From contig CP074575.1 in the NCBI GenBank assembly GCA_018394315.1, forward strand, positions 248,001-312,000: a stretch of 64,000 nt of DNA, written 5' to 3'. The position numbers were made by a program, and so were the translations under genes. The first letter of the stretch is position 1. Each line of letters opens with the position of its first letter. The DNA is from Mycoplasmatota bacterium (lineage in GTDB: Bacteria; Bacillota_I; Bacilli_A; MAG-NZ). The notes under the pieces are model-generated. The model had not been told where the DNA came from. It did not search any database and worked only from the letters and a program-made list of their open reading frames with translations. Shown in pieces: positions 1-22,026 of this stretch.

Positions 1-756
1 GTCAATAATTAAATCCTGCATTTGATATAATCTAAGATCTTTTCCATATTTATAGTTAGAACATATTTGATAAAAATAGGAGAACTTTCTATTAGCATCA
101 ATATTGTACATCATGATGTCGTACGACTTTTCATTCTCTTTTTTTAGTACATATCCAGATGTTATTGCTGGAATGAATAATGCGAGTAAAATTAATAATA
201 TACTCCATGGATTATTTAAAAATGTAATGAGTGAATTTGCACTTGTAATATCTTTGCTTTGTAGTAATCCAAATAACAATGTTATACCAAATACTAAACT
301 TAGTACGGATGAAAGAATCCCACTAAGTACATACTCACAATAAACTTTAATACCACCATTACCTGCACAACCCTCTTCAGCCATTTGAATTAACTTCATT
401 GTAGAATTATCCTCCAAAGTAGCATAGTCTATTTCAAATGATTTAAGGGCTATTTTATTGTCTAAATTGTAATTAAGTTCAACAGTATAGGTTTTATTTA
501 AGTAATTGAGATAGTTTCTAATTATACTTATAATTAAATTTAATCCTATCATCCAATAAACATAAAACATTAATTCGATTCTAGGAATATTATTTACTAT
601 TCCATCAATTAGTAAATAAGTAAAGAAGATTGATACATATGGGAAAACAGCAGTAAAAAATGATTGTAAAATGAATACATAGAAATACCCTTTTGATAAT
701 TTGAATGCCACTTTAAGTACATTTATTGTTTTACTAAAATTCCCCTTAACTTTCAT
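1..756 (-). CDS. ABC transporter permease/ATP-binding protein, N-terminal part (runs off the window edge)
   Basis: Hand-translated from ATG at 756, overlapping the upstream stop: MKVKGNFSKTINVLKVAFKLSKGYFYVFILQSFFTAVFPYVSIFF. Hydrophobic segments and a later YGKDLRLY motif resemble the 8765-10618 protein. Confidence 0.85.
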   Translation of the reverse strand, partial: MKVKGNFSKTINVLKVAFKLSKGYFYVFILQSFFTAVFPYVSIFFTYLLIDGIVNNIPRIELMFYVYWMIGLNLIISIIRNYLNYLNKTYTVELNYNLDNKIALKSFEIDYATLEDNSTMKLIQMAEEGCAGNGGIKVYCEYVLSGILSSVLSLVFGITLLFGLLQSKDITSANSLITFLNNPWSILLILLALFIPAITSGYVLKKENEKSYDIMMYNIDANRKFSYFYQICSNYKYGKDLRLYQMQDLIID

Positions 757-2551
757 TTTCTTCACCCTCCATATAATACTGAGCTTGAATATCGAATACT
801 TCACGATATAGCTTGTTAAGTTTCATAAGCTCCTTATGAGTTCCTTCTTCAACTATCTTTCCGTCATCTAAGAAGATAATACGATCACAGAACTTAGTTG
901 ATGCTAATCTATGAGATATGAAGATTGAAGTACTATCTTCTGTATACTCCTCATATTTCAGATACATTTTCTCCTCAGAGATAGGATCTAAGGAAGCTGT
1001 TGGTTCATCTAGAACTAATAACGAAGTACCTTTATATAAAGATCTTGCCAACATTAGTTTTTGTATTTCCCCACCACTCAGTCTAATTCCCGATTCATCA
1101 AATGTTTGTGTTATATATGTCTTTTCCTTGTTTTCTAGGGACATTACTTTATCTTTCAACCCTGAATTTTCTAAAGCATAATCAAGTTTTGCTTTATCGA
1201 CATCACTATTCTTAACACATGATATATTATCTTCAATAGTTAATGATAAAGGTTCTGAATCCTGAAATACCACTGAGATTAAAGACATATAATCCTCGGT
1301 ACTGAATTCACTGACGTTAATCCCATTAAATTCAATACTTCCTTCATCAGGTTTATATAATCCACAAAGTAATTTTATAACAGTAGTTTTACCTGCACCG
1401 TTATTACCAACAAGTGCTAAATTTTCACCAGAAATGATTTTAAAGTTAAGGTTTTCAATTACTGGTTTTTTAGACTTAGGATAAGAGAAAGTTACATTCT
1501 TAAATTCTACAGTTATTGGTAGTTTAAGATCACTTACACTTAATCCTTGGTTATTACGTAACCTATCTTCAGTTTCAATACATTCTCTATACTTATCCAC
1601 AGAAATATTACAAGCTCTTAATTGATTTGATGCTTCTGTAAATCCATTAAGCCACAATGAAAACCCAGTAATTATTCCTGTTAAAAATGTAAATGTAGTT
1701 AAATCAATCCTATTATTTATAACTAATCCAATAACTATTCCATATCCAACTGCATCTCTGATAAATAAGAATAATGTATTAGAAAAATTAGCTGTTAAAA
1801 ATCTTTTCTCAATTTTACTAGTTACTCTTCTTCTATTCTTAGTAAGATTAACAAATAATTTATCAAACCAATTGCCAAGGTTATATAGTCTAATATCCTT
1901 ACCATAATTTGGATTAGTAGAATCTTTAGTTAAATAATATTGTTCAAGAAATTCATCATTTAGCTCGTTCTTCTTATTAGCTAAATATATATTAGCTCTT
2001 TTAGTTAATATAAAATTGATGATTGTCATTAATACTAATATCACAAGAACAACAGGTACATATAATGTAATTAATACACCATATATTATTAATCCAACTA
2101 TGTTAATTAAGATTAAAGGAGTTTGTTTTAATAACATTTCAATTCCGTAATAATTACTTTTTATAGCCTCAAAAGCTTTTGATATAATTTTTCTTTTGTC
2201 CATTGATTCTACATTAATATAGTCTGTCGTAATTTGATGTTTAGAAAGTCTATTCCAAAACGTCGAATTTCTTGTAAATGTATTCTCAAAGGAATATCTA
2301 AGAAATGACCAATACCTTAATGATTCCAAGATATAAGTTAAGACTGTAACTCCAATTATAATTAAGATATAAGCCTCAACATTGGTATTGTTTGTTAAAA
2401 TATATACAACTATAGTAGTTATCACGATAGCTAAAAATGGTACAAGCAATTCTGTTATAAAATTTATTAATAAAAACCACTTAATTCTAGGATAATTCTT
2501 AAAAGTTTCTTTATACACATAATGAATATTATTTAGTACTGTCTTACTCAT
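746..2551 (-). CDS. ABC exporter (TMD-NBD fusion)
   Basis: Walker A GNNGAGKTT, signature LSGGE, Walker B LVLDEPT and N-terminal TM helices. Start moved to MSKT behind a GGGGGA RBS. Confidence 0.93.
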   Translation of the reverse strand: MSKTVLNNIHYVYKETFKNYPRIKWFLLINFITELLVPFLAIVITTIVVYILTNNTNVEAYILIIIGVTVLTYILESLRYWSFLRYSFENTFTRNSTFWNRLSKHQITTDYINVESMDKRKIISKAFEAIKSNYYGIEMLLKQTPLILINIVGLIIYGVLITLYVPVVLVILVLMTIINFILTKRANIYLANKKNELNDEFLEQYYLTKDSTNPNYGKDIRLYNLGNWFDKLFVNLTKNRRRVTSKIEKRFLTANFSNTLFLFIRDAVGYGIVIGLVINNRIDLTTFTFLTGIITGFSLWLNGFTEASNQLRACNISVDKYRECIETEDRLRNNQGLSVSDLKLPITVEFKNVTFSYPKSKKPVIENLNFKIISGENLALVGNNGAGKTTVIKLLCGLYKPDEGSIEFNGINVSEFSTEDYMSLISVVFQDSEPLSLTIEDNISCVKNSDVDKAKLDYALENSGLKDKVMSLENKEKTYITQTFDESGIRLSGGEIQKLMLARSLYKGTSLLVLDEPTASLDPISEEKMYLKYEEYTEDSTSIFISHRLASTKFCDRIIFLDDGKIVEEGTHKELMKLNKLYREVFDIQAQYYMEGEENES

Positions 2552-2871
2552 GGTTCCCCCCATTCAAATTTATATGATTCAGTACTAATCATAACACAGT
2601 ACTTCGCATACCGCAATACCGTGTGTGATAAAAGAATATCAGCTAATTTAGAGTAGACGTTCTTTTAAAGTGAATAAGAATGTTATTTCTTAAAACAACT
2701 TGTCACTGAAATCATATTAACAAACATTATAATTATGGAAAAAATAACTCTAATAAACAATCCGTACGAGTACAATTATCCATTATAACTCCCACTAACT
2801 ATTAATCTCATTTTACTTCCGTGATTTTTACTTCACTTTTACACAAAATTTATTACACTACCAGCGAACAG

Positions 2872-2913
2872 GAAAAAACAGTTGATGAGATCAATCTCGT
2901 AAATCAACTGTTT
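2872..2913 (-). terminator. Rho-independent terminator-like hairpin
   Basis: AAACAGTTGAT...ATCAACTGTTT inverted repeat with a minus-strand T-run. Confidence 0.6.
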
Positions 2914-3068
2914 GTTGTTGCATAATATTTATCACGTAATTCGTCGTTAGTATCTCCTATATAGTCCATCATAATTAATGATAATTGATGTGGATCTACG
3001 TCTCGCGGCACCGTATAGTTATTTTCTTCTATACTTTTTAATAATTCAATTAATACTACTTTTTCCAT
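2904..3068 (-). pseudogene. Truncated DUF2785-like gene (N-terminal 54 codons)
   Basis: RBS GAAGGGTG, then MEKVVLIELLKSIEENNYTVPRDVDPHQLSLIMMDYIGDTNDELRDK. IGDTxxELRD resembles the DUF2785 N-terminus from memory. The frame stops inside a hairpin. Confidence 0.55.
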
Positions 3069-3583
3069 AGTATCACCCTTCCTTTTTTTTCTAATATAAA
3101 CTCATTGTTTCTGTTCCTTTTATGTGCTGAAAATACTAAATCACGTAGAATCGCCGCTACTTATGATCTTGTTGAATGTAATGCTAATTATTATAAATCA
3201 TTATTTAATTTGTAACATACAGTTAGATAAAAATTGATGTAAAAACCTTATCATACTTCCCAACAACCTTTTATTTTAGTATAGATTTACAACAAACTAT
3301 TACAAATTTATCACATTTTTTACACATTATAAGTATTATATAAAATAATAAATATAAAAAATGACTCGTCTAAGCCATTATTCTACTTATACAATATAAA
3401 GACAGGAGATACACTTGTAAATCATATACAACTTTTAGAAAAATGTTACTTTGCTTGTAGATAAAAACCATACAGAGTCTAAATAATGTTTAGGTATATT
3501 GAATAGAAACCAATGATGCTTTTACTAATAATATAGCATTTTCCAAATTATAAATACCTATTTTTAGTTGTTATTCGTAATAA

Positions 3584-3618
3584 TGGGGTGACTGAAGGTG
3601 CCTATAAGGCACTCTCGA
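3584..3618 (-). repeat. tRNA-His 3'-end repeat R1 (class B: 15-bp core plus GTGCCT-ATA-AGGCAC hairpin)
   Basis: TGGGGTGACTGAAGG is a 14/15 match to tRNA 21950-21964, followed by TGCCTATAAGGCACTCTCGA. Confidence 0.88.
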
Positions 3619-3692
3619 TTAAATCAATTGCTGCCCTTCAACATCTTCATTGGTTTGAATCCGACTGTCAGAGCTGTGACGGCACGCAAATT

Positions 3693-4121
3693 CTAATACA
3701 ATTTAACTTTTCCTTGAAAGGTATAAGAGGCAGAATTATTAATCAATTTGCTAATACCATACTTATGATAAGGCATTAGACTATCAGCTGTTGGAATATC
3801 TACCCATTTTACTATTGAAATTTCATTTGGATCTGATATTGAAATCTCTCCATCAACAATTTCAGCCCTAAAGGTCACAAATATTGCATGTTCTTTCTTT
3901 TTTTCAAAAAAACATTCATTTATAGCAACCACATCTATGATTTCAATATGGAAACCTGTTTCTTCATGCATTTCTCTAATAGCTGCTTGTTCTAATGTTT
4001 CCCCATCTTCAACTAACCCACCTGGCATAGACCAGTGGTTAGTATCTTTATTATGTACCATTAGTACTTGATTAGTTACTTTATTATATATCAAACAATA
4101 TACCACATTTACTTTTTTCAT
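3693..4121 (-). CDS. Nudix hydrolase
   Basis: Nudix box GGLVEDGETLEQAAIREMHEETG. Confidence 0.93.
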   Translation of the reverse strand: MKKVNVVYCLIYNKVTNQVLMVHNKDTNHWSMPGGLVEDGETLEQAAIREMHEETGFHIEIIDVVAINECFFEKKKEHAIFVTFRAEIVDGEISISDPNEISIVKWVDIPTADSLMPYHKYGISKLINNSASYTFQGKVKLY

Positions 4122-4203
4122 TTATAATCACCTCATTTTTTAGTATTACATTCATAAATCCATAATACCACAACATACTAAATTGATAAAAGCAAATTTC
4201 AAC

Positions 4204-4236
4204 AAAAAATGACTAGTTCTTCTGAACTAGTCATTT
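4204..4236 (-). terminator. Terminator hairpin resembling the one beside repeat R3
   Basis: AAATGACTAGTTC-TTCT-GAACTAGTCATTT perfect stem with an A-run. Confidence 0.7.
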
Positions 4237-4542
4237 GTCAAAATACATTGTCTTCTCTTTAACATTAAAGAATCGGTGTTTCAACTTTTCAATTCTAGAT
4301 ACTATCACTAGTTCTTTTTTATCTTTTATATATTCATTTACAAACTAGTAAGGATCTTCTACACTATTCCTCAAACCGATAAAACCAACTCCAATTGTAT
4401 TGGAAATCTTAGTATTACATTTAGTACAATAAGAATACTATTAAATAACTTAAACAGGGTCTTACAGACCCTATTTCTTCTTATATTACCTAATATCGGT
4501 TTTTAAGTTAATTAAATATAAATATTGTTGTTTACATCAACT

Positions 4543-5094
4543 CTATGGACGTTTTGACATAAGAGTCTTAGATTTACAAGGAATGCTAACAACATAATCG
4601 GATAAATTTACGTTTTCTTCTATCTTCATCTTCAATAATTTATACGTTACTAAAGCATCACTCAAAGGGTTGTGAGCATCGTGCTGTATATCATAATGAA
4701 TAGCTAATTTCCCTAATGCTACCTTCTCTTCCGAAAAAAAATTCATATTAGAGATGTCTAGAAAAGAACCTTCTACAATATCAAGATTTGCAAGCTTGAG
4801 TTGATCGTTTAGTGCCAGAAAATCTTCTTTTGAAAAACAGACAGGGATCACATCATCTTCTACAAAAAAGTCCCTTATCTCATCGAATAATTCCTTCACT
4901 CCAAAAACAATAGTCGCAATATTTCTAAATTCGTTAACTTTTCTTTTAGGAGCATTCCTGTTACTTACATCTATACTATCATCAATGATAATGTTTTGAC
5001 TAAGTATATTAAGATCACTATCAACATAAATGTATCCCAGCATGTAGATTTTCGTATTCTTAATTCGTTCCGTATCCCAAATGAAAAACCTCAT
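4543..5094 (-). CDS. DEDDh 3'-5' exonuclease family protein
   Basis: Start MRFFIWDTE (ExoI DxE) behind RBS GAGGGA. ExoIII motif HNPLSDA. Confidence 0.8.
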   Translation of the reverse strand: MRFFIWDTERIKNTKIYMLGYIYVDSDLNILSQNIIIDDSIDVSNRNAPKRKVNEFRNIATIVFGVKELFDEIRDFFVEDDVIPVCFSKEDFLALNDQLKLANLDIVEGSFLDISNMNFFSEEKVALGKLAIHYDIQHDAHNPLSDALVTYKLLKMKIEENVNLSDYVVSIPCKSKTLMSKRP

Positions 5095-5214
5095 ATATTC
5101 CCTCGCATAATTCTCTTTCAATTTTTTCTTCGAGCTCATCTATTATCTTGTTTTCAGCATTGCTAAGTTTGTTTGATATATTTGTGTCAGTAATCATAAC
5201 TTCTCCACTCCTAA

Positions 5215-5438
5215 TTAATGGCTTCCTCCATACTTTTTGTGCAATGCTACTAAATACTTCAAACTACTCGAATCATAGTTGTTGTGTCTCTCAGACATGT
5301 GACAATGACTTATGTTCTTGTACATGTTCAATACACATTTTTAACTTCTCTTTTAATGTATAACGCATAATAAAAGTTCCCTTCATCAGAGTAGGTAATT
5401 AATTATACCATTTCTCCAACTTTTTGGAAGCCATTTCA
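5215..5438 (-). mobile_element. IS3-family (IS150-like) left-end remnant with decayed orfA
   Basis: Minus strand starts TGAAATGGCTTCCAAAAAGTTGGA (IS3-type IR), then TATAAT, an RBS and MRYTLKEKLKMCIEHVQEHKSLSHV*. It continues frameshifted as NYDSSSLKYLVALHKKYGG, which is OrfA HTH-like. Confidence 0.72.
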
Positions 5439-5446
5439 AGTCATAA

Positions 5447-5475
5447 TGGGGCGACTGAAGGGAATCGAACCCTCG
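5447..5475 (-). repeat. tRNA-His 3'-end repeat R2 (class A, 29 bp identical, whole T-arm to CCA)
   Basis: TGGGGCGACTGAAGGGAATCGAACCCTCG is identical to 21950-21978. Confidence 0.95.
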
Positions 5476-5740
5476 TAAGTCAAACATACACTTATTTCAA
5501 TATATATTTTTTCAAAGAGCAATCGAAAATATTTGATGAATTATGATGTCATTATATGACATAATTGCTTAATCCCATTAATTCATCTACTACTATTATA
5601 AGATTTACACGGAATGATTCGTTCTGTTCAAAAAAATAATTTGCTTTTTCTCAATTTATTCTCTATTCTTGAAAACATAATATATTCAATAAAGGCAATA
5701 ATTAGGGATCCAACTCCTGTAATTGCTTAATCTAAATTTC
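5476..5740. repeat. Class-A flank, copy 1 (direct repeat of about 18547-18811)
   Basis: Near-identical over about 160 bp (e.g. CTATTATAAGATTTACACGGAATGATTCGTTCTGTTCAAAAAAA), then degenerate similarity. Confidence 0.88.
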
Positions 5741-6077
5741 TTCTTTAGTTAACCAATTATTCAATTATATCAACTAGATCTAAATGTACGGTGTTGTAGA
5801 CCGTATTAAAATGGGAAATAAAATCTTATATATCACTTACCTTATCTTGATAATCATCTAGTCATAAATTATTTTAATTTGCAATTATGTCCGAATCACC
5901 ATGCGCACATAAAATCCAATAAAGGAACAAGCGACCTACCTTTTTCTGTAATACTATACTCAACTTTAGGTGGTATAACCTTATAATCCTTCCTATGAAC
6001 TAAACCATCTCTAACAAACTCTTTTGTATAAAATATGAATGCTAGTCTTAAAAAAAAAGAAGAATTTCACATTCCTC

Positions 6078-7726: not shown

Positions 7727-7821
7727 TGCGCTAATCCTCCTAACAAATAGAACTTAATTCTTATCTCTTCAAGATAGGTATAGTAAATAAGTCCATTACC
7801 ACTTAATCTTTGTTGTGATAA

Positions 7822-8238
7822 TTAATGATTGTTTTCATTAATACTCAAATTTCTATAAATCAAATCATCTCTTTTATCAAAACCAAGTGATTGCCAAAAT
7901 TTATTTCCTAAATCATTAGAATTAAATACAAGAAGTGCAATCTTATTTATTCCTTCTTTCTTTAAAGCTTCAAGCACAGTATTAACCATTTTTTTCCCAA
8001 TTCCTTCCCCACGATATTGAGAATCAACTGCCGTATGATAAACGTATCCTCTTCTTCCATCATGTCCACATAATATTACACCGACAATATCATTTTCGAC
8101 TTGTGCAATATAATTTGTGGTGGGGTTTCTTTTTAAGAATTTTTCTATTCCCTCATATGAATCATCTAAATTACGCATACCCATACCTTTTGTATCTGTC
8201 CATAATTGATATACTTTGTCATAATCCCCAATTGTCAT
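7822..8238 (-). CDS. GNAT acetyltransferase
   Basis: GHDGRRGYVYHTAV and the acetyl-CoA motif YRGEGIG. The true start may be ATA at 8253. Confidence 0.9.
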   Translation of the reverse strand: MTIGDYDKVYQLWTDTKGMGMRNLDDSYEGIEKFLKRNPTTNYIAQVENDIVGVILCGHDGRRGYVYHTAVDSQYRGEGIGKKMVNTVLEALKKEGINKIALLVFNSNDLGNKFWQSLGFDKRDDLIYRNLSINENNH

Positions 8239-8610
8239 TAATTTAATTTCTATGTTAGCCGCCTCCTAAACCCATATATTCATCTTACTCCTGATTTTCC
8301 CTTATTCATTTTCCTTACTATCCATTAGTTCTTTTATAATCAACTTTATATTTCTAAAACATCAATATTTTTTCAGTATAAAAAACTTAGTTAGAGTAAA
8401 ACCGCTATTACCTTCATAATATCATATAGTCTCATAGCATACAATTAGCTATGCTATAAGAAAAAAAAGCGAAAGTTAATCGATTACTTATATCCATTTT
8501 GGGAATATGAGAACCAGTTATTTTCACGAAAAAGCATGAGCAACTAAATCTATAGAGAGATACATAAAAAAAATAACCAAGTTATTGTACTAGTCATTCG
8601 TATGTCATAA

Positions 8611-8642
8611 TGGGGCGACTGAAGGTAGCTATGAGGCACCGA
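8611..8642 (-). repeat. tRNA-His 3'-end repeat R3 (class B)
   Basis: TGGGGCGACTGAAGG is 15/15, followed by TAGCTATGAGGCACCGA. Trailer TCGTATGTCATAA and a degenerate terminator at 8566-8598. Confidence 0.9.
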
Positions 8643-8764: not shown

Positions 8765-10618
8765 TTATGTATTATAGTGCTTTGCTTGAGCAGACCACAT
8801 ATTATAATATAAACCATCAGTACTTCTTAACAATTCATCATGGTTCCCTGACTGAATAATTTCGCCTTTGTCAAACACAATTATATTGTCGCAAAATCTA
8901 CAGGAAGACATTCTATGAGATATATATATTGCTGTTTTTCTTTCGACCAATGCGTCAAACTTCGTATATATTTCATATTCAGAAATTGGATCTAATGCTG
9001 AAGTTGGTTCATCAAGAATAACTAGAGGAGTGTCTTTATATAATGCTCTAGCTATAGCTATTTTTTGTGATTCTCCTCCTGAAACTTCTACCCCTTGTTC
9101 ACCAAAGTTTGAATAGAGATAAGAATCAATACCGTTTTCTAATTTTTCTATTCGTTCTTTCAATCCTGCTTGTTCTAAGTATTCTAGGACTTTTTCATCT
9201 TCTCCATCTTGCTCACACATCACGTTTTCTTTTATTGTTGACGAAAATAATTTAAAATCTTGGAAAACTACAGATATCAGGTCAATATATTCTTTATAAT
9301 CATATTTTCTAATATCAATTCCATTAAGTAAGATTTCTCCCTTTGTTGGATCGTATAACCTACACAATAATTTTATAAAAGTTGTCTTACCAGCTCCATT
9401 AGGTCCCACAATGGCTAATTTCTTGCCAGTTTCCATCTTCCACGAAACATTATTCAGAATTATTTCGTCATTATTAGGGTAATGAAATGAAACATTCTTA
9501 AATTCAAATTCATATTCACCATCATCACGTTTTTCGACTGGGAGTGTTCCTTTATACATGTTTGTATTTGTCTCCAAATATTCTTTGTAAAGAGCCAAAT
9601 ATCTTGTTTGCATTACTGCACCAGAGATATTAGACGCAAATTGTACGACAGCTGTATTAAACGCTGTTACCGCACTCACAAGTAAGAGTACATTACCTAC
9701 AGAGATTATTCCTAGTAATGCTTTAATCCCTATAATTGTATAAGCTGTATATAATACTACATGATTCAACAATCCACCTCTTGCATTCATCCAGCCAGAT
9801 TTATTAAAAATATATCCGTAAGACTTTGAGGTTCTTACGCTATAATCTTTAATTTTACTAGAAAGCAATTTATCAATATGAAATAACCTTATATCTTTGC
9901 TTAATTTATAATCCATTGAAGAATTAAGTAAATATAAAAATAACCTATTTACATATATATTCTCTTCAAACACGGCATGGTGTAATTTGTTTACGTTATT
10001 AATTATTTTGAAATTTAATAACAAAGAAATAATTATTAATCCTATTAACCCCACTCCCAATAAAGGACTGTTAAATATTCTTGTAATTTTATCTGGATCA
10101 TTTAAATCTACACTAATAAATAAAGCTATAATCAAAGTGAATGAGTAGATAATAGATATAATATTTTCAATGGCTTCACCTAATATATTTATAAAGGTTC
10201 CAATTCCACCTGTAAATAGTACTCCTTGATTAGCACTAGAAATTTTATCTTTTATTTCTTTTGACTCTAATTGTTCAAAATCTAAGTTAAGAGTCTTTTT
10301 TGAAATCTCACTATTTAAACGTAGACCTATCAGATTAGTCTTTTGTTCACAGAAGAAAGTCAACATGGTTCTAGAGATTAAGAGTATCCCACTGATAATA
10401 ATCATTTGATATACATAGGCCATGATAGACGTTTTATCTAGAGCATCAATAAACCCATCAAGAATTAACGCACTATAGATTATTGCTACAAATGGTAGTG
10501 AAGCCGTAACTAAAGATTTAATAATCATGAGAGGAAAAAATAGTCTATCTGATTTGTTTGATATTTTTATTACATCAATAATTTCTTTTAATAGTTTACG
10601 TTTAGATTTCATCTTCAT
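8765..10618 (-). CDS. ABC exporter (TMD-NBD fusion)
   Basis: GPNGAGKTT, VSGGE and ILDEPT. Start MKMKSK behind GAGGA. Terminator AAGAATCGAGA/TCTCGATTCTT at about 8741-8766. Confidence 0.93.
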   Translation of the reverse strand: MKMKSKRKLLKEIIDVIKISNKSDRLFFPLMIIKSLVTASLPFVAIIYSALILDGFIDALDKTSIMAYVYQMIIISGILLISRTMLTFFCEQKTNLIGLRLNSEISKKTLNLDFEQLESKEIKDKISSANQGVLFTGGIGTFINILGEAIENIISIIYSFTLIIALFISVDLNDPDKITRIFNSPLLGVGLIGLIIISLLLNFKIINNVNKLHHAVFEENIYVNRLFLYLLNSSMDYKLSKDIRLFHIDKLLSSKIKDYSVRTSKSYGYIFNKSGWMNARGGLLNHVVLYTAYTIIGIKALLGIISVGNVLLLVSAVTAFNTAVVQFASNISGAVMQTRYLALYKEYLETNTNMYKGTLPVEKRDDGEYEFEFKNVSFHYPNNDEIILNNVSWKMETGKKLAIVGPNGAGKTTFIKLLCRLYDPTKGEILLNGIDIRKYDYKEYIDLISVVFQDFKLFSSTIKENVMCEQDGEDEKVLEYLEQAGLKERIEKLENGIDSYLYSNFGEQGVEVSGGESQKIAIARALYKDTPLVILDEPTSALDPISEYEIYTKFDALVERKTAIYISHRMSSCRFCDNIIVFDKGEIIQSGNHDELLRSTDGLYYNMWSAQAKHYNT

Positions 10619-12425: not shown

Positions 12426-12488
12426 TTCTTTCCCTCCTAATATCTTACAATTTAAATATATGACAAAATTTCTAACAATTAAAAAAAA

Positions 12489-12520
12489 GTGCACGAAACG
12501 TTGAATTTTGTGCACTAGTG
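12489..12520 (-). promoter_or_regulatory. Candidate LytTR-binding direct repeat
   Basis: GTGCAC at 12489 and 12510, a 21-bp period typical of LytTR sites, between the LytTR/GHKL pair and the ABC operon. Confidence 0.5.
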
Positions 12521-12525
12521 GTTGT

Positions 12526-13545
12526 TTATAGTGGCAATAGCACCTCTGAAACGAATACTTTAGGTTCATTTTGACGATTAATAAAGCCGCTATACTTATC
12601 AACAACATTATTAATTCTTTTTAAACCATGTCCGTGATTGCCCCTTTTTGTTGTAATATACTCATCGTCTAGTTTCCTTATTATTTCATTAGTAGAATTT
12701 GCTACAGAAATATATAGTTGCTGCTTAAATACCCCGATATATAGTCTTACAAATTTTGGACTTTTGTCTTTAATCTTTTCACAGGCTTCTACAGCGTTAT
12801 CGATTAGATTACCTATTAATACACATAAATCGATATCTGATATAGTGAGTTTCTCTGGGACTTTAGCTTTGTATTTTATTTCAACATTATTTTTAATCGC
12901 TAAGGAAAGTTTAGAGTTAAGAATTGCGTCAAGATTTACATTGCCCGATTCAACTAGTTGGTTAACACTATCCAAATCAATTTCCAGTTCATTGAGATAT
13001 TCATTAGCTTCTTTTATTTGATCCATCATGATATGAGCTTTAAGCTTTTGTAAATGATTGTGATAATCATGTCGCCAACTTCGCATTGTTAGATAAATAT
13101 TTTGGACTTCTTTTACCTGCTTATCAAGAATTTTATTTTGGTATTCTGTAGCAATATCTTCATAAGATTTTTTCATAAGAATCTGATTGTTTTCTGCTAA
13201 TAAAAATATCGTAGAAATCAGAAAACTAATGTATATAGAAGTTTCTTGAAATTCATAACTAAGGAATAAAAGTAACCCCATTGAAAAAATAAAGAGGAAT
13301 AGAAATATAAATGTTATTTTATGATATAAGCGCAATAAACAAAAAACGACTAATGTATCTGCCACAAGTAAAGTCACAAGATTTTCAGATATAGTCAAGT
13401 ACTTTAGCAAAACAAAAAACGCTATCAGAGTAATCGCTATGATAGCCAACCCAATCATAATGGTATTAAGTTTCTTATTTTTATCCAACAGAAACAATCC
13501 ATAAATAATTACAATAAAAATCGGTACTAATATATAATATTCCAT
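12526..13545 (-). CDS. GHKL sensor histidine kinase (AgrC/HATPase_c_5-like)
   Basis: TM N-terminus, H-box RHDYHNH, N-box NLIDNAVEA and G-box HGHGL. Confidence 0.92.
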   Translation of the reverse strand: MEYYILVPIFIVIIYGLFLLDKNKKLNTIMIGLAIIAITLIAFFVLLKYLTISENLVTLLVADTLVVFCLLRLYHKITFIFLFLFIFSMGLLLFLSYEFQETSIYISFLISTIFLLAENNQILMKKSYEDIATEYQNKILDKQVKEVQNIYLTMRSWRHDYHNHLQKLKAHIMMDQIKEANEYLNELEIDLDSVNQLVESGNVNLDAILNSKLSLAIKNNVEIKYKAKVPEKLTISDIDLCVLIGNLIDNAVEACEKIKDKSPKFVRLYIGVFKQQLYISVANSTNEIIRKLDDEYITTKRGNHGHGLKRINNVVDKYSGFINRQNEPKVFVSEVLLPL

Positions 13546-14258
13546 TACACACCTTTTCCTTTATAATAATTTATAAATTTCTCATTAACTTCTTTATATG
13601 AGTTCCTACTTAAAGGAACTTTTATATTATTGATTAGTTGGCATTCATTCTTAGTAATTTTTTCAATATAGTTAAGATTTACAACGTATGAACGATGAGT
13701 TCTAATAAATTCTGACTCAGATAGTTCAAGACATAAATCACTCATCTTATACTTATAGTCATATTCCTTATTTTCTACATGTAATACAATATAATGTCCC
13801 ATTGATTCAAAATAAACAATATCATCATAGTTTATTTTTTTCTTTTCTCCAGACACTGATAGAATTAAATATTTATTTTCTTTGCCTATATGAGTATTAG
13901 CATAATCTAAAAGCTCATATACTTTTTCATCTTTAATAGGTTTTAAAATATATCTAATTGCTTGGACTTCATAACCTACAAATACATAATCAGCCATTCC
14001 TGATATGAAAGCAATTATTACATTTTTATCAGTTTCCCTAATCTTCTTAGCAAGTTGAATTCCATTTATTTTACCCATTTGTATATCTAAAATAATCATA
14101 TCAAAAGGATATGATTCGTTATTTTCAAATAACATTTCTTCAGCACTTTGATAAAAATTTATGTCAGTATTTGTATTATATTTGTTAGCCCATTTTTTAA
14201 TAATCACTTTCAAATAGTCAAGTTGTGTCGAGTCATCATCAACTAAGCATATACGCAT
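13545..14258 (-). CDS. LytTR-family response regulator
   Basis: Receiver motifs VDDD, LDIQM and YILKP. LytTR motif FIRTHRSYVVN. Confidence 0.94.
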   Translation of the reverse strand: MRICLVDDDSTQLDYLKVIIKKWANKYNTNTDINFYQSAEEMLFENNESYPFDMIILDIQMGKINGIQLAKKIRETDKNVIIAFISGMADYVFVGYEVQAIRYILKPIKDEKVYELLDYANTHIGKENKYLILSVSGEKKKINYDDIVYFESMGHYIVLHVENKEYDYKYKMSDLCLELSESEFIRTHRSYVVNLNYIEKITKNECQLINNIKVPLSRNSYKEVNEKFINYYKGKGV

Positions 14259-14459
14259 ATAACTCCTCCATCCTAAAAAAATTTTACCATTTTTAATCAA
14301 CTTATTCTTTTAAAATATCAAATACCCTATCGTTTTCTCATCATGTATCATTATTTTCTAATTTGTAGTACCATACTTAATTATTAACATGCCATATAAA
14401 TACCAAAAAAAGCGCAAGAGGGGGGCTTTGTTATAGTATGATATAATTAGTTGCAATCC

Positions 14460-15149: not shown

Positions 15150-15251
15150 TAGTTATCTCCAATTATTAATCTAATAAATCTCAACAAAAACCTTAAAAGG
15201 TTTCACATACATATAATAACACAGAATCCAAAATAATAATAACTAAGAAAG

Positions 15252-15460
15252 TGAACTGGCTTTCTTATATTGGAGTGGATTTTGATCAACCCCCCACCAT
15301 ATTTGCTTCTTTAAAATACTCATTTCTATAGTTTACTGGACTCATCTTGTGTCTAGTTACTATTCTTGTGTTATTGTAATAATCTATATATTCGAGTATA
15401 GTACTCATCAATTCTTCTATCTCTATTATAAGATTTGATTTGTTTCGTTCAAAAAAAAAT
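15252..15460 (-). mobile_element. IS3-family right-end remnant (OrfB C-terminus plus IR)
   Basis: IEELMSTILEYIDYYNNTRIVTRHKMSPVNYR is typical of an IS3 OrfB tail. It ends CCAATATAAGAAAGCCAGTTCA. Confidence 0.8.
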
Positions 15461-15541
15461 TTCGTTTTCTTAGATATTTTAATAAGAAAAAGCAATAATA
15501 AGAGATCCAACTCAAATTATTGCCTTTAGTTCAAACTGTAG

Positions 15542-16735
15542 TTACTTCACCTTTTTACCCATAAATAATATATTACCTTCATCGTCACCGATTATAAACA
15601 TAAATGGTCTATTTACGATAAATTTTCTATTATCTGCTTCACATTCTTTCATCTTTACTGATGTAGCTGCTGCCGCCTCTGTACCCTTTTCACTTACATC
15701 CACTACTGCTTTATGATTCACTTCACTTATATAGAGTGACTTGTTGCCTTCAATTAAGTATGGAAAACCTTCTGCTTTACTATCAAAGGCAATGCCCATA
15801 CCAAGATGTTTCAAGGCGCCACTTATTTCTTCGATTCCATATTCCATCCTAAATTTTGGTAGTTCAAGAGTAACTTCATAATGATTATGCATACCGTTTT
15901 TTACATCTAACCATTTTTCTTGATTCATTTTAGAAACAATTGAGTTAATATCTGTGTTTTCTCTAGGCAAAATACAATACATACTAACTTTTCCATCACC
16001 ATAAGGAATTCTTACAGATATTATTTCTTCATTTTCATAGTAACTAAAATATTTAGATTTTCTCATCATGTCAACTTCTACTATAGTATTGTCGATCGTA
16101 TTGAAATCTTTTACTTTTGTCATTTCAGGATCGAACTCATCTTGCCATGATCCATTGAAATATATTGCATTTACTAGATACAATACTGCGCTTGGATCTA
16201 TTTTCTTAATTATTTTATCAATCATCTCGGAGGTTTCATCACTCACCCAATTGTTTATTGTTTCTGATGATTTCGTATCATTAAAGTCAAGTTTAGATAC
16301 TATTGAATCAAAATTAAATCTTACATCCTCTTTAAATTGCTCATTCAATTCGTACTCATCTCTTAACCATAATGAATTAGCAATATTAATTTTGACGTCT
16401 TTATCCAGGTTCATTAGCATGTGATTTATATAAGCAAATCCATTATTTATATCTTCCATACTAATATCAGTAAGTTTTAAAGTATCTTCCATCGCACTCT
16501 TTGTATTTCCTTCTGCTCCATTTAAAGTCATTGCTAGAGCACTTGAAATACTATATGGAGATATAAAAATATTTTCGTTATAATCCTCATTATTTAACTC
16601 TCTAAAGATATCAAAGGCAAACTCAGAATTCCCTTTAGTTACTAAAGGATTTTCTACACCCTTATTTACCCTTTCGCATGCTAACAAGGTAACGCTTAAC
16701 AATAATAGAAAAAGCATACTTACTAATTTATTCAT
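15542..16735 (-). CDS. Serpin (protease inhibitor), predicted lipoprotein
   Basis: Lipobox LLAC, NIFISPYSI, NAIYFNGSW, hinge EKGTEAAAAT, and NRPFMF...ILFMG. Confidence 0.95.
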   Translation of the reverse strand: MNKLVSMLFLLLLSVTLLACERVNKGVENPLVTKGNSEFAFDIFRELNNEDYNENIFISPYSISSALAMTLNGAEGNTKSAMEDTLKLTDISMEDINNGFAYINHMLMNLDKDVKINIANSLWLRDEYELNEQFKEDVRFNFDSIVSKLDFNDTKSSETINNWVSDETSEMIDKIIKKIDPSAVLYLVNAIYFNGSWQDEFDPEMTKVKDFNTIDNTIVEVDMMRKSKYFSYYENEEIISVRIPYGDGKVSMYCILPRENTDINSIVSKMNQEKWLDVKNGMHNHYEVTLELPKFRMEYGIEEISGALKHLGMGIAFDSKAEGFPYLIEGNKSLYISEVNHKAVVDVSEKGTEAAAATSVKMKECEADNRKFIVNRPFMFIIGDDEGNILFMGKKVK

Positions 16736-17090
16736 CTAATCCCTCACTTTTAATTCTTTATATTTTATAGCATACTCTAATATACTATCACTTCCACTAA
16801 GGTAATCTTCAAAGGTATAGCTAATTGAAATGTCTGGGTAAAGGGTTTCGTCATTCTCATCTATAAATTCAAAATAAAGAGACTGCTGAAAGTATTGAGT
16901 GGAGTAAGATGTATTAAGAAGTTTATTGGGTGTAACTAATGTTAGGATATCACCAAAAGAATCAGGCTTCTGTCCTGTTGGCTCACCAATTAATAGACCA
17001 TCCAAACTATTCTTTATGCTAAGTGCATTTAACATTCCTGAAGAATAAGTACCTAAATTGATTAACCCAATAATAGCATTACTGTTTTCC
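16736..17090 (-). pseudogene. C-terminal fragment of an S41 peptidase (paralog of 18940-20244)
   Basis: IGLINLGTYSSGMLN...IGEPTGQKPDSFGDI closely matches the C-terminal quarter of the 18940 protein. The N-terminal part is missing. Confidence 0.85.
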
Positions 17091-17244
17091 ACATAAAATA
17101 CCTTCTCCCATATATCGTATAGATATATTGTACCACAAAAAATATTTAAAGAATGCGAATGATTCGACAAGGGGTTAATGACCAATTAGTAAAAGAGGAG
17201 CAAATACTTTATTTAATTAAGTTTTATACTATAGTGCAACACAT

Positions 17245-17274
17245 AAAAAAACACCAACTTTTCCAGTTGATGTT
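17245..17274 (-). terminator. Terminator downstream of repeat R4
   Basis: AACACCAACT-TTTCC-AGTTGATGTT stem (G-U pair on the minus strand) with an A-run. Confidence 0.65.
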
Positions 17275-17284
17275 AATGATTTTT

Positions 17285-17320
17285 TGGGGGCGACTAAAGG
17301 TGCCTATAAGGCACTCACGA
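17285..17320 (-). repeat. tRNA-His 3'-end repeat R4 (class B)
   Basis: TGGGGGCGACTAAAGG followed by TGCCTATAAGGCACTCACGA. Confidence 0.85.
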
Positions 17321-17342
17321 ATAGTGAATCATTCTAATTTCA

Positions 17343-17434
17343 AGTCCTGAAAATAGCAAACCCAACATTGTGACTTAATAAAATTGATGGTGGGGGTTAG
17401 ATAGTAATCTATGCAATTTTTCAGAGTCACTTCA
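17343..17434 (+). mobile_element. Degenerate IS3-family right end
   Basis: ATGGTGGGGGTTAGAT...TGCAATTTTTCAGAGTCACTTCA parallels the IS3 end at 15252-15300 (ATGGTGGGGGGTTGAT...CAGTTCA). Confidence 0.55.
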
Positions 17435-17442
17435 AGTCATAA

Positions 17443-17473
17443 TGGGACGACTGAAGGTGCCTATAGGGAACTC
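17443..17473 (-). repeat. tRNA-His 3'-end repeat R5 (class B)
   Basis: TGGGACGACTGAAGG is 14/15, followed by TGCCTATAGGGAACTC. Trailer AGTCATAA. Confidence 0.87.
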
Positions 17474-17615
17474 ACCAATGTTACTTATTAAAAAACTTAT
17501 CATCTATTTATGATACGCCTCACCGTATCTATATAATCAGCAAACTTAAAAAAGTACTAATGAGCCTGATTTTCATCTCAGGCTCTTTAGTATAATATAA
17601 GAAGTTTGCGAATCA

Positions 17616-18080
17616 TTATTCTTTTGACTTCATCATCAAACATTCCGTTATACCTTGTCTGTATAAGTTAGGTATATCACCAATTACTGAATATCCTATA
17701 TCTTTGTACAATCTTTTTGCATCCGGATTAAAATCGGATACTACTAAAAATAGTTTTGAATATTTTTTATAATAAACATCCTCAATAAATTTTAAGAGCA
17801 TTTTTCCTATTCCCTGACCACGATTTTCACTTTTGACAGCAATAATATGTACATAAGGATGCATATGGAAGATTCCATTTAATATAACCCATACAAATCC
17901 CTTACAGTTGTTATTATTGTCTATTGCGACATATATATCATTTTCGTTAAATCCTTCTTCTAATGCTTTTCGAGCTTTTCCCTTTTCTGAAAAATATCTT
18001 TTTCCCAGTTCTGAATTTACTAATGCCTCCTCACAATCATCTATATAATTTATACTTCCCTTTTTAACTGTTATTTCCAT
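17616..18080 (-). CDS. GNAT acetyltransferase
   Basis: RGQGIGKMLL and NPDAKRLY motifs. Confidence 0.92.
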   Translation of the reverse strand: MEITVKKGSINYIDDCEEALVNSELGKRYFSEKGKARKALEEGFNENDIYVAIDNNNNCKGFVWVILNGIFHMHPYVHIIAVKSENRGQGIGKMLLKFIEDVYYKKYSKLFLVVSDFNPDAKRLYKDIGYSVIGDIPNLYRQGITECLMMKSKE

Positions 18081-18331
18081 ATAAAATACACCCCTAATCT
18101 TAAGTTAATTACCCAATATTTTACAAATGTTCACAATTAGTTATATTATATACCAAATTCCTACATCATGCACTAGGTCCAAACTTTATTTTATTTGTAA
18201 TTCTTGAGCTATCCATCTACCTCGTCAAATCTAAACCGTTTTAACTCTCTTTTCAAACACATATTATAATTATGTAATAATTGTTACAAACGGAATAATT
18301 AATAGCAGTTCACCCTATAGGAGGAGTTTAA

Positions 18332-18454
18332 ATGAGAATAATTCAATCACTAAACAACATAAGCCAACTAAAGCAACATTCCCCACTAGCTAAGGATATT
18401 AAGTTGTTAAGTTCATTCCTCTTTCATATTTATGGTACGGCTCATTGTTTTTAA
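18332..18454 (+). CDS. Small 40-aa ORF or gene remnant
   Basis: Strong RBS AGGAGGAG, then MRIIQSLNNISQLKQHSPLAKDIKLLSSFLFHIYGTAHCF*, ending before a hairpin. Confidence 0.35.
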   Translation: MRIIQSLNNISQLKQHSPLAKDIKLLSSFLFHIYGTAHCF

Positions 18455-18473
18455 TTCTAAACAACACATATAT

Positions 18474-18505
18474 AAAAAAAACGGTAGATTTATTAATCTA
18501 CCGTT
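18474..18505 (-). terminator. Terminator downstream of repeat R6
   Basis: AACGGTAGATT-TATT-AATCTACCGTT perfect stem with an A-run. Confidence 0.85.
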
Positions 18506-18517
18506 CGTAAGTCATAA

Positions 18518-18546
18518 TGGGGCGACTGAAGGGAATCGAACCCTCG
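18518..18546 (-). repeat. tRNA-His 3'-end repeat R6 (class A, 29 bp identical)
   Basis: Identical to 21950-21978. Trailer TCGTAAGTCATAA versus the tRNA's TCGTAAGTCTCAA. Confidence 0.95.
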
Positions 18547-18811
18547 TAAGTCAAACTTACACTTATTTCAATATATATTTTTCAAAGAACAATCATAAAC
18601 TATCTGATGAATTATTATGTCATTATATGACATAATTGCTTAATACCATCAATTCATCTACTTCTATTATAAGATTTACACGGAATGATTCGTTCTGTTC
18701 AAAAAAAAATTACCTTTTTCAAACTATCCTCTATCTTGTGGAACTGGACTATACTTAAAAAAAGCAATAACTGAAGATATACCTTCTAACATTGCCTCTA
18801 ATCAAGAATTC
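18547..18811. repeat. Class-A flank, copy 2
   Basis: Direct repeat of 5476-5740. Contains the palindrome ATTATGTCAT-TAT-ATGACATAAT (18614-18636). Confidence 0.88.
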
Positions 18812-18939
18812 TTATTTAATTCACAAATTCTATATAGTATTCAGTTCTTACCCTCAAAGAGAATAATCCAATTATTATGTATAATGCAACAGATTTACTC
18901 AGAGGAGTTTTAAAACACGGAAATTGCCCAGTGCAGTAT

Positions 18940-20342: not shown

Positions 20343-20371
20343 AAAAAAACAGTTAGAAATTTAACTGTTTT
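20343..20371 (-). terminator. Terminator downstream of repeat R7
   Basis: AAAACAGTTA-GAAATT-TAACTGTTTT with an A-run. Confidence 0.75.
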
Positions 20372-20381
20372 ACTGTTCTTT

Positions 20382-20416
20382 TGGGGTGACTGAAGGCGTA
20401 CACTAAGTGCTTACGA
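20382..20416 (-). repeat. tRNA-His 3'-end repeat R7 (class B variant)
   Basis: TGGGGTGACTGAAGG is 14/15, followed by the bulged hairpin CGTACACTAAGTGCTTACGA. Confidence 0.85.
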
Positions 20417-20744
20417 ATCAGCTATTTCATAAGAATATAGCAAACTCATAAGATATGAATCCGGCTACTTCTACTGTGTCGGCACACAAAATATAATACA
20501 ATTTAACTTTGTCTTCCCTTTCTAACTATTAGTATTCTATTTTACTTTTGGTTACATTTTATAACTTTACATTGAACCTTTCAAATTTTCCTTTTGTCCT
20601 TTATAAGTATTTGTATGAAAAGTTAAATTGTTTATCCTTCCGTCTGTTTTGAACTTCACAAATTTCATTTTATAGGACGGTTTTAACATTGTATATAGCT
20701 AACTAAAACATATATTAAATGTCATAACTTCATAATCTATATAT

Positions 20745-21542
20745 CTACTTTTCTTCTAATAATAATTCTGAAAACTTGATTCCTTCTTCATACAATTCTT
20801 CTAAAAACACTCTAAGCTTTTCAATATTATGCACACCTTTATATATCGATTCAATATTCAAAGAACCCTCATATTCAGTTTCTTTAAGTTTATTTGCAAG
20901 TCCCTCCAACTCGATTAAACCTTGTGATAAGCTAAGATGATCATCAGTTTCACCATAATTGTTGTGTAAATGTATAGCAGATAATCTATCTCCATATAAT
21001 TTTAACCAATCAATATCTTTTGACCAAACATTTTCATGACCACAATCATAACAAAAATTAACATTGCTATTAGAGTACTTTTCCAGTACAAATATTAATG
21101 TTTCAGGTTTTCTCACATTTTCAAGAGCAATTGTAATACCATACTTCAATGCCAACTCAAAAATACCATCAAGCCTTTTAAGACCAATGTCACTGATTTC
21201 TGGTGGAGTATCTCCATTAGTTAAATGCATTACTATTGTGTTTATATTATATTTATGACAATCTTCAATTTCTTGAAGTAATTTATTAAACTTGTAATTT
21301 CCATCAACACTATCTAGCCAAATACTATTCATATTATAAAAATCTGAATGTACATTAGAAATGTTCAAATTATTAATTCGAGCAAGTCCTACTCGCTCTT
21401 CTCGAGACAAGGAATCATCTTCACCCCACCAAATCATAACCGATGTAAATCCACATTCTTTGTAAAGCCTAAACCTTTCTGAACAAGATAAAAAAGGAAA
21501 TCCATTTGCATCACTAATTCCAATACCATTCTTAATTTTCAT
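20745..21542 (-). CDS. Sugar phosphate isomerase/epimerase (AP endonuclease 2-like TIM barrel)
   Basis: IALEN, YDCGH, HLHNN, DDHL and NIES metal-binding motifs. Confidence 0.88.
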   Translation of the reverse strand: MKIKNGIGISDANGFPFLSCSERFRLYKECGFTSVMIWWGEDDSLSREERVGLARINNLNISNVHSDFYNMNSIWLDSVDGNYKFNKLLQEIEDCHKYNINTIVMHLTNGDTPPEISDIGLKRLDGIFELALKYGITIALENVRKPETLIFVLEKYSNSNVNFCYDCGHENVWSKDIDWLKLYGDRLSAIHLHNNYGETDDHLSLSQGLIELEGLANKLKETEYEGSLNIESIYKGVHNIEKLRVFLEELYEEGIKFSELLLEEK

Positions 21543-21786
21543 TCATAAGCCTCTTTCTATATCTAGATAGCATTTATTAACTCACATCGCTCTTTTAAAA
21601 TATTATTTAATCAACAAAATATTTTAAATTAACTATTATTTATGTGAACACCACAGAATATATTATTTCTAACTGTGTAAATACATTATTTATTATATCA
21701 ATATTGAATTGACATGTTAAGGTCATATCTTCCATAATACTATTTGCAAAGTCCTACTTTTGTAATTAAGTATTCGTCAGTCTCAA

Positions 21787-21816
21787 TGGGGCCACTCAAG
21801 GGGCTCGAACCCACGA
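21787..21816 (-). repeat. tRNA-His 3'-end repeat R8 (diverged class A)
   Basis: TGGGGCCACTCAAGGGGCTCGAACCCACGA matches 21950-21979 at 25/30. Trailer TCGTCAGTCTCAA resembles that of the tRNA. Confidence 0.85.
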
Positions 21817-21909
21817 GTGAAAACAGTACTAAACACACCAATTCAACACTAAAATGACTCCATTTAGAAAATTTAGCGTTCTCAAAGCTCCATATAGTTC
21901 ATATAAAAC

Positions 21910-21937
21910 AAAAAAAGAACTAGTTTTCACTAGTTCT
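21910..21937 (-). terminator. tRNA-His terminator
   Basis: Minus strand AGAACTAGT-GAAA-ACTAGTTCT followed by a T-run. Confidence 0.9.
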
Positions 21938-21949
21938 CGTAAGTCTCAA

Positions 21950-22026
21950 TGGGGCGACTGAAGGGAATCGAACCCTCGAATATCGGAGCCACAATCCGAC
22001 GTGTTAACCACTTCACCACAATCGCC
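21950..22026 (-). tRNA. trnH: tRNA-His (GTG)
   Basis: GGCGATTG...TCGGA-TTGTGGC-TCCGA...GAGGG-TTCGATT-CCCTT-CAGTCGCC-CCA. 8-bp acceptor stem with G-1 and encoded CCA. Confidence 0.98.

Follow-up and report, generated by a model that had tools for sequence, protein, structure and literature searches.

How can one tRNA gene come to be followed by a row of copies of its own 3' end, with small genes between them and no recombinase nearby? This question is raised by the tRNA-His locus of a Mycoplasmatota bacterium (GCA_018394315.1, contig CP074575.1), whose genome is a single contig of 2.17 Mb with 31% GC. The window analysed is a stretch of 64,000 nucleotides, positions 248,001 to 312,000 of the contig, and the tRNA gene and eight of its displaced copies lie in the first 22,026 positions. 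An original prediction had described them as an array of gene cassettes, inserted serially at the tRNA by a recombinase acting in trans or encoded beyond the left edge, and had proposed an analogue of an integron. The locus is not an integron in the strict sense. It probably arose by serial site-specific integration at the tRNA-His end. The units are non-autonomous, flanked by attachment (att) sites and resemble cis-mobilizable elements (CIMEs) or a tycheposon island.

ARAGORN detects one tRNA only in the 64-kb window. A 15-mer from its 3' end has nine matches at up to two mismatches, the tRNA included, and every one is on the minus strand. The chance expectation is 0.01 (100 shuffles), and none of the 100 shuffles gave nine matches. 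This confirms the predicted eight co-oriented tail copies (0-2 mismatches, Table 1). The predicted spacings, counted from the tRNA outward, are all correct: 163, 1405, 1864, 1075, 157, 8675, 3164 and 1863 bp. The repeat had been taken as the last 15-30 nt of the tRNA. The tail copies are there, but the conserved block extends about 13 nt beyond the CCA, as TTATGACTTACGA or TTGAGACTTACGA. The consensus core is TCAGTCGCCCCA followed by TTATGACTTACGA.

The motif is concentrated at one locus and not scattered over the genome. At the tRNA-His locus are nine of the 12 genome-wide 15-mer matches, with three elsewhere. A profile built from nine sites returns 12 sites in the genome at E<1, ten of them at tRNA-His. 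As predicted, the array runs off the window. A ninth displaced site, at genome 234,864-234,886, shares 22 of 23 bases with the tRNA junction and is found 16.7 kb to the left of copy 3584. This gives the island a length of about 35 kb. It has nine displaced sites, and one further core is counted as lost. The GC content of the island, 0.26-0.32, is merely slightly low compared to 0.31 for the genome.

Three of the spaces between cores deserve comment. Core 1 and the tRNA enclose an 'empty' unit of 163 bp with nothing but a terminator and an arm. The 157-bp spacing was called correctly, though the sequence holds an inverted end of an insertion sequence (IS). The 8.7-kb stretch, which had been read as one unit, comprises at least two. 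It contains a truncated copy of an end module, named PA-1 and described below, together with an IS fragment, and a metagenome contig has a core directly before the MNT-HEPN gene. Judging from the sequence, a core that once separated the serpin unit from the MNT-HEPN unit was lost at this fusion (15252-15470).

Table 1. Features of the tRNA-His island and related copies elsewhere in the genome. Positions are those of the window unless genome positions are indicated.
Feature	Position	Strand	Evidence and remarks
tRNA-His(gtg), island anchor (attB side)	21950-22025	-	ARAGORN; Rfam tRNA 63.3 bits
Displaced core 1	21787-21801	-	15-mer match, 2 mismatches; T-arm tRNA-like but diverged
Displaced core 2	20382-20396	-	15-mer match; unit 20397-21786 = TIM-barrel (AP_endonuc_2) gene
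Displaced core 3	18518-18532	-	15-mer match; PA-1 at 18533-18829; unit has S41-peptidase-like gene
Displaced core 4	17443-17457	-	15-mer match; unit 17458-18517 = GNAT#2; inverted IS end 8 nt past CCA
Displaced core 5	17286-17300	-	15-mer match, 2 mismatches; extension degenerate
Displaced core 6	8611-8625	-	15-mer match; four-gene LytTR/GHKL/ABC operon (8770-14296) upstream
Displaced core 7	5447-5461	-	15-mer match; PA-1 at 5462-5760; unit: GNAT#1, APH-like kinase, nitroreductase
Displaced core 8	3584-3598	-	15-mer match; unit 3599-5213 = Nudix gene and 198-aa protein without known family
Start of outermost 16.7-kb stretch, ABC exporters and more	1-3583	-	continues to site at genome 234,864-234,886
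PA-1 copies in window	5462-5760; 18533-18829; truncated 15406-15470		
PA-1 copies elsewhere	genome 390,044-390,214; 2,046,882-2,046,945; 1,815,787-1,815,974; 224,414-224,493; 674,780-674,935		
IS3-family 5' fragment	5214-5446	-	inserted 8 nt past CCA of core 7
IS3-family 3' fragment fused to truncated PA-1 (15406-15470)	15252-15510	-	rve_2 match; 95% identity to full copy
Inverted IS end, copy 17443	17370-17442		8 nt past CCA
Serpin gene of array	15542-16735		
Other serpin genes	genome 199,899-201,024; 1,443,889-1,445,095; 1,452,191-1,453,400; 1,460,729-1,461,944		

No integrase is encoded in the island. The tyrosine recombinase family PF00589 has ten matches in the genome and none between 8 kb and 657 kb, in agreement with the predicted lack of an integrase in the window. 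Pfam annotation of all island open reading frames (ORFs) detected neither a tyrosine nor a serine recombinase, and the serine recombinase families PF00239 and PF07508 have no match in the genome. A recombinase past the left edge was not found: in the 20 kb left of the window, an IS3 transposase is the sole such gene by Pfam, with no integrase, and the genome has no unassigned recombinase. Seven PF00589 genes are intact. Two are Xer-like and the others are located beside tRNA-Trp (two), tmRNA, tRNA-Ser(tga) and tRNA-Arg(tct).

Remnants of integrases were searched by tblastn with nine integrase proteins as queries. The His arrays of this genome, of its relatives G004 and G005 and of the metagenome contig PPCM01000075.1 yielded nothing below E = 0.2; a very divergent family could escape this search. 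The same search found two C-terminal remnants in the Ser(tga) array (E = 4e-35 and 2e-06) and two in the Arg(tct) array. These have 30-62 aa and lie about 100-250 nt after displaced cores. Further remnants were detected inside the Arg and tmRNA islands. With this working positive control, a decayed integrase in each unit, which the original prediction had named as counter-evidence, was not found. The locus-specific repeats and the lack of any integrase or remnant bear out the view of the units as non-autonomous att-type insertions at one tRNA.

Two further leads were rejected. A bridge-RNA mechanism has a single IS110-family gene in the genome, at 673 kb, and the long contiguous identity to the tRNA does not fit split guides. 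Two pattern scans of viral contigs for core and extension gave 0 and 1 match; the single match, on a contig with 37% GC and no tRNA or integrase nearby, is taken as chance.

The architecture is shared by other loci. About ten tRNA/tmRNA genes of this genome are trailed by displaced, co-oriented copies of their 3' ends. A tyrosine integrase convergent to the tRNA is present at four of these loci (Trp, Ser-tga, tmRNA and Arg-tct). Small integrase-free units only are present at six (His, Ser-gct, Gln, Glu, Pro and Leu-tag). The tRNA-Trp gene and a Trp repeat enclose a complete 7.3-kb element (genome 1-8,100), which encodes a tyrosine integrase (PF00589), a Viral_Rep protein (HUH), an HTH protein and a ThiF/DUF6791 and DUF6527 pair. 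Behind this element is a second integrase, the classical tandem arrangement. Relatives carry integrase-plus-Rep elements at Ser(gct), Leu(tag), Trp, Phe and Leu(caa). The integrases beside Ser(gct) and Leu(tag) indicate that such elements exist in the family, though they are absent from the genome studied.

Three relatives have integrase-free arrays of their own at the syntenic tRNA-His. Upstream of the tRNA, G004 and PPCM01000075.1 keep the same flank as the genome studied, with a permease and a 351-aa protein in synteny. The array of G004 has at least ten displaced cores over 31.6 kb, that of G005 has four over 12 kb, and the metagenome contig has four. Pfam found no integrase among the 26 (G004), 10 (G005) and 16 (contig) ORFs of these arrays. 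The cargo is almost wholly different between genomes and the flank is retained; an identical gene order, which the original prediction had named as evidence against mobile units, is not observed. The sole segment common to the arrays of G004 and the genome studied is the GNAT#1 module (7780-8556), with 80% nucleotide and 89% amino acid identity, compared to about 60% amino acid identity of the flanking genes. Here it begins about 55 nt after a core; its other end lies off the core, as do both ends in G004. Defence genes in the relatives' arrays code for a UG5-type (DRT-type) reverse transcriptase, PDC-S73, ThsB-like TIR proteins, a caspase-like protein, a GajA-like ATPase and a STAND NTPase. 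The tRNA-His locus is the main hotspot of this lineage for accessory and anti-phage genes. Two PPCM contigs were not accepted as independent insertions: they share the flank as well as the element, with 93.5% identity over 8.2 kb.

A further relative, G001, belongs to the same genus. Its genome is 55% complete, its array is unassembled, and only two short contigs were obtained from it. Both contigs carry a composite 99-nt repeat, in which a His-type core is combined with a terminator and the tail of tRNA-Leu(tag), and they diverge directly past the His core.

The cargo genes were identified by Pfam as Nudix, nitroreductase, APH-like kinase, two GNATs, a fused MNT-HEPN protein, a serpin, an S41-like peptidase and a TIM-barrel protein, together with a LytTR regulator, a GHKL kinase and two ABC exporters. 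All genes named in the original prediction were recovered except the putative 'exonuclease': the gene at 4543-5139 is without a match in Pfam, NCBIfam and PADLOC. The cargo is of foreign origin. The GNAT#2 module (17520-18400) is 97% identical to DNA in the genome of another family in a class-wide BLAST, and this copy has no His core beside it. The LytTR/GHKL/ABC operon has 70-79% nucleotide identity over up to 5.5 kb to at least ten genomes of four other families. All substantial ORFs of the array are on the minus strand, as had been noted. The value of this fact as evidence is weak, because about 80% of the ORFs of at least 200 aa in this replichore are already on that strand (142 of 173 and 138 of 180; replication origin near 533 kb by GC skew).

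The sequence upstream of the cores is derived from the elements and groups into families. One family, PA-1, is a non-coding end module of 200-325 nt that is 84-87% identical on units with unrelated cargo. In the window it closes the units of 5447 and 18518; outside, it also closes the ectopic His-type sites 1,815,778 and 1,819,738. Copies of PA-1 bear the tails of three tRNAs, His, Ser(gct) and Pro. PA-1 is made up of five parts: terminator, conserved TATAAT-containing box, inverted repeat, A/T-rich stretch and tRNA-like tail. The genome studied has ten matches to it and G005 a weak one, and six relatives have none. A second type of arm, with a 37-nt block, is common to the copies at 3584 and 20382. 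Most other arms retain TTCGTGRG, a counterpart of the variable loop and T-stem of the relatives' tRNA-His. Past the core, a terminator-like hairpin was predicted within 45 nt at three of nine sites, and a hairpin with a T-run was seen by eye at five of nine. These hairpins after part of the cores make a single common promoter unlikely.

PA-1 was also considered as an RNA gene. An Rfam search at E <= 0.1 over positions 1-23000 found the tRNA only, so PA-1 is not a described RNA family. Upstream, the TATAAT motif is accompanied by a conserved TTGAAC at a spacing of 25 nt in full copies, which is non-canonical; in a promoter scan, the truncated copy alone scores. The consensus fold of five sequences keeps five of 25 predicted pairs after two-sided changes, two of the five in the closing stem of the first hairpin, and these are too few sequences to call. 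The reading as an RNA gene was not adopted. Nor is PA-1 a copy of the tRNA-His promoter.

His-type sites away from tRNA-His are located at genome 974,044-974,078 and 1,815,778-1,819,754. One of them sits ahead of a paralogous pair of ABC exporters. Two flank a trypsin-like gene and a gene for a 278-aa protein, downstream of thiI.

Metagenome contigs suggest that units have been gained or lost at the repeats. The GNAT#2 unit is 99-100% identical in two sediment metagenomes, X1 at a depth of 43-96 and X2 at 5-12. Bins next to it have a depth of 0-0.8, an excess of GNAT#2 of 25- to 150-fold. X1 also holds the ABC genes of a relative (about 92% identical, depth 7). Four contigs in X1 diverge at 18543, within the T-arm just upstream of the core. 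A contig with a depth of 5.1 in X1 runs, at the repeats, from the 3' flank of the tRNA straight into the terminator of the serpin unit. The four proximal units are absent from it, as would be expected if newer units insert beside the tRNA. Another contig has a core directly upstream of the MNT-HEPN gene, and a contig joint from 15154 to 18503 is part of the evidence for the lost core. The original prediction expected breakpoints to coincide with the repeats. The serpin-unit and MNT-HEPN joints fit this, but the ends of the GNAT#1 and GNAT#2 modules are off the cores. None of the refuting outcomes named in the original prediction was borne out in full. All sequencing sets listed as matching were of DNA and shared only 0.06-0.10 of the sampled words, and the raw-read run X3 gave 26 reads.

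Serial integration probably proceeded as follows. A tyrosine-type recombinase would recognise the last ~12 nt of tRNA-His and about 13 nt past the CCA, and circular DNA would be inserted repeatedly at the 3' end of the gene. Every insertion would rebuild the tRNA end, supply a new terminator and push the older units outward, so that the newest units adjoin the tRNA. The outcome would be the 35-kb row of units, each closing in an element-derived arm and a displaced core. A crossover in or near the CCA region fits the sequences, since the identity block straddles the CCA, with divergence in the T-arm part of most arms. The cognate integrase is not resident. It is presumably encoded on a transient helper of the integrase-plus-Rep type, like the element at tRNA-Trp and those that relatives carry at other tRNAs. 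Units could be moved by such a helper either in trans or, once accretion has taken place, in cis. Later, an IS that targets tRNA ends, deletions and the replacement of single genes would have eroded and reshuffled the row.

Several observations weigh against this scenario. About 30 units in four lineages are without remnants, which fits poorly with a simple decay of elements carrying a tRNA-adjacent integrase. No His-specific integrase was found in eight genomes of the order, two metagenome contigs and the viral contigs, so the helper is hypothetical. Neither the GNAT#1 nor the GNAT#2 module has a core at each end, and part of the turnover therefore follows another route. No excised circle or active recombination was observed, the 26 reads of X3 being too few for circles. 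The metagenome joints are single contigs of low depth (5-7) from mixed communities.

It is conceivable, if rather doubtful, that the integrase-free units at His, Ser(gct), Pro, Glu, Gln and Leu(tag) form one family of helper-dependent 'satellite cassettes'. These would be minimal circles of a tRNA-tail core, a terminator and an end module, PA-1 or similar. They would capture single genes and, always lacking a recombinase of their own, would exploit the tRNA-specific integrases that integrase-plus-Rep elements encode. The case for helper-dependent cassettes lies in the conserved end modules and in the total lack of remnants, that for ordinary turnover in the visible decay and in cargo modules whose ends are independent of the cores. 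If such cassettes exist, tRNA-His of Izemoplasmatales-type bacteria would be an open, integron-like capture site without a resident integrase. If the units are cassettes and not wrecks, tRNA ends and borrowed integrases would provide a second, widespread integron-like route of gene capture, which could explain tRNA-linked islands with att scars yet without an integrase.

A true integron analogue would go further. The units would be purpose-built cassettes with terminal modules, excised and inserted singly by a recombinase elsewhere in the cell or on a dedicated helper, and the locus would be kept as a capture platform. The lack of integrase remnants despite working positive controls agrees with it, and so does the small size of the units (0.16-3.2 kb), one of which, the 'empty' one, is made of arms. 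PA-1 and the second end type on unrelated cargo, PA-1 with three tRNA tails, the retention of an integrase-free array across three genera and one metagenome contig, and the abundance and conservation of the GNAT#2 unit far above its neighbours in two metagenomes also speak for it. This origin is unlikely, however: all seven intact PF00589 genes are placed, there are no serine recombinases and no unassigned recombinase, the ends of cargo modules miss the cores, and IS-mediated decay is evident. PA-1 is confined to this genome apart from the weak match in G005, and the hairpins after three (tool) or five (eye) of nine cores speak against a common promoter.

The comparison with integrons has the same outcome. 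Integrons consist of intI, attI, the promoter Pc and a series of attC cassettes; attC sites are imperfect, folding palindromes and the cassettes are mostly promoterless. The His array resembles them as a row of small, mostly single-gene, co-oriented units with a recurring site. Its acetyltransferases, phosphotransferase-like kinase and toxin-antitoxin-like gene also resemble integron cargo. It differs by the lack of an adjacent integrase (PF00589), attI or Pc, its sites are direct repeats of a tRNA tail instead of folded attC palindromes, and the hairpins do not agree with promoterless cassettes read from one promoter. On these features the array is not an integron, and it has no integron-type platform with a resident recombinase. 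An attC-like fold was also looked for, with arm and extension as an inverted repeat (8 or more of 13 positions matching at one fixed offset). Only six of the 46 sites listed have it, four of the six with a shuffle p <= 0.07, and this candidate was rejected.

Xer-dependent modules, such as IMEX elements and the pdif modules of Acinetobacter plasmids, are also integrase-free, with short sites and a recombinase encoded elsewhere. A dif-type site has two inverted 11-nt arms around a 6-nt spacer. The His units share the location between short sites without an integrase. Compared by eye with the dif consensus, their core does not show dif-type arms, and the two Xer-like genes of the genome are of the housekeeping type. 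A dif/Xer-like core is not supported: a scan for generic dif palindromes missed the His cores, and the comparison by eye gave no sign of it either. One Xer-like gene (1,567,682-1,568,581) lies less than 5 kb from the cumulative GC-skew maximum at about 1,572 kb, the skew-defined terminus. This position resembles that in single-recombinase systems of the XerS/XerH type.

Ordinary eroded tandem islands are a quite improbable source of the array. Each unit would once have been autonomous and all integrase modules would have been deleted without trace. The textbook route to CIMEs is of this kind (PMC5704250). Decay is visible in the array as IS fragments, a lost core and degenerate extensions, and other arrays of the genome show such decay with remnants persisting. 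The contrast with these arrays is the difficulty: the His arrays of four lineages have 0 remnants, remnants of 30-62 aa persist beside displaced cores in the arrays at Ser(tga) and Arg(tct), and in the His units the core extension and terminator pass straight to the cargo.

Least probable by far is that the repeats are short homology anchors, used for RecA-dependent or illegitimate swaps after DNA uptake, with tail copies spread by duplication: the GNAT#1 and GNAT#2 modules do move with ends off the cores, and core plus extension give only about 25-45 nt of identity, but all ten sites are co-oriented with a conserved block sharply bounded around the CCA end, the same architecture exists at about ten tRNA/tmRNA loci, four with an adjacent integrase, and His-type sites are also found away from tRNA-His inside other arrays.

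Serial integration of integrase-less units has precedents. Stacked, att-flanked units without an integrase at tRNA or tmRNA genes are already in print as CIMEs with tandem accretion and as tycheposon islands. CIMEs are described as lacking integration and transfer genes, flanked by att repeats and moved by an incoming element with a cognate integrase (PMC5704250). The His units share with CIMEs and accretion, as described for the ICESt1 family and others, the direct repeats of a target-gene 3' end around units in tandem at one site. Their att repeats derive from the 3' end of the target, and Pfam and tblastn found no integration or transfer genes. Compared to these CIMEs, the His units are much smaller, often with a single gene, and without trace of integrase modules. 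The island has no conjugation-related genes or helper in view, and the host is a wall-less Mycoplasmatota lineage of the Izemoplasmatales type.

Dehalococcoides has several ssrA islands in tandem with ~20-bp direct repeats of the 3' end, and their number varies by strain (PMC3146451). Some lack an integration module and were proposed to be cis-mobilizable (same source). The likeness to the His array is the series of islands downstream of one small-RNA gene, bounded by 3'-end repeats. In Dehalococcoides, 16 islands keep a serine-recombinase module; the His island has none and its target is a tRNA. The tycheposon islands of Prochlorococcus are anchored at tRNAs, with scattered partial tRNAs and new elements that push older ones inward (bioRxiv 10.1101/2020.12.28.424599). 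Integrase-carrying elements are rare and transient there, and the cargo is adaptive or defensive (bioRxiv 10.1101/2020.12.28.424599). The layout of an integrase and a replication gene described for tycheposons recurs in the tRNA-Trp element of this genome. A tyrosine recombinase with a replication gene at the tRNA is thus present at tRNA-Trp and missing from the His units. The His island has no integrase, Rep or fragmented integrase, and its lineage and integrase-associated motifs are unrelated to those described in that preprint.

The erosion of the units by IS insertions and deletions is evident from the fragments, the lost core and the degenerate extensions. The IS belongs to the IS3 family and has a full copy at genome 1,071,555-1,073,032 with the left end TGAAATGGCTTCC. 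In this genome its end is located exactly 8 nt 3' of the CCA, with the left end proximal, at five sites: three His cores and one repeat each of tmRNA and tRNA-Leu. The three His cases are the copies at 5447 and 17443 and the lost core near 15400. Within the class, other families have an IS end 8 nt past a tRNA-type CCA at eight of 12 loci: tRNA-Gly (three), tRNA-Ala, tRNA-Leu (two) and two tRNA-/tmRNA-like fragments. Three of the 12 loci have the IS end 8 nt past a CCA in a conserved non-tRNA context, and one is without an IS end. Among the titles and abstracts listed in a literature search, none described a tRNA-end targeting habit in the IS3 family. The constant distance of 8 nt points to sequence- or structure-guided targeting by an IS3-family transposase, which, if confirmed, would offer a natural safe-site insertion system for study.

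Two cargo families recur within the genome. The LytTR regulator of the operon upstream of core 6 is Agr/Com-like, and three paralogous ABC pairs are present in the genome. Serpins are encoded by five genes that are mutually about 72% identical, three of them inside the tRNA-Arg island.

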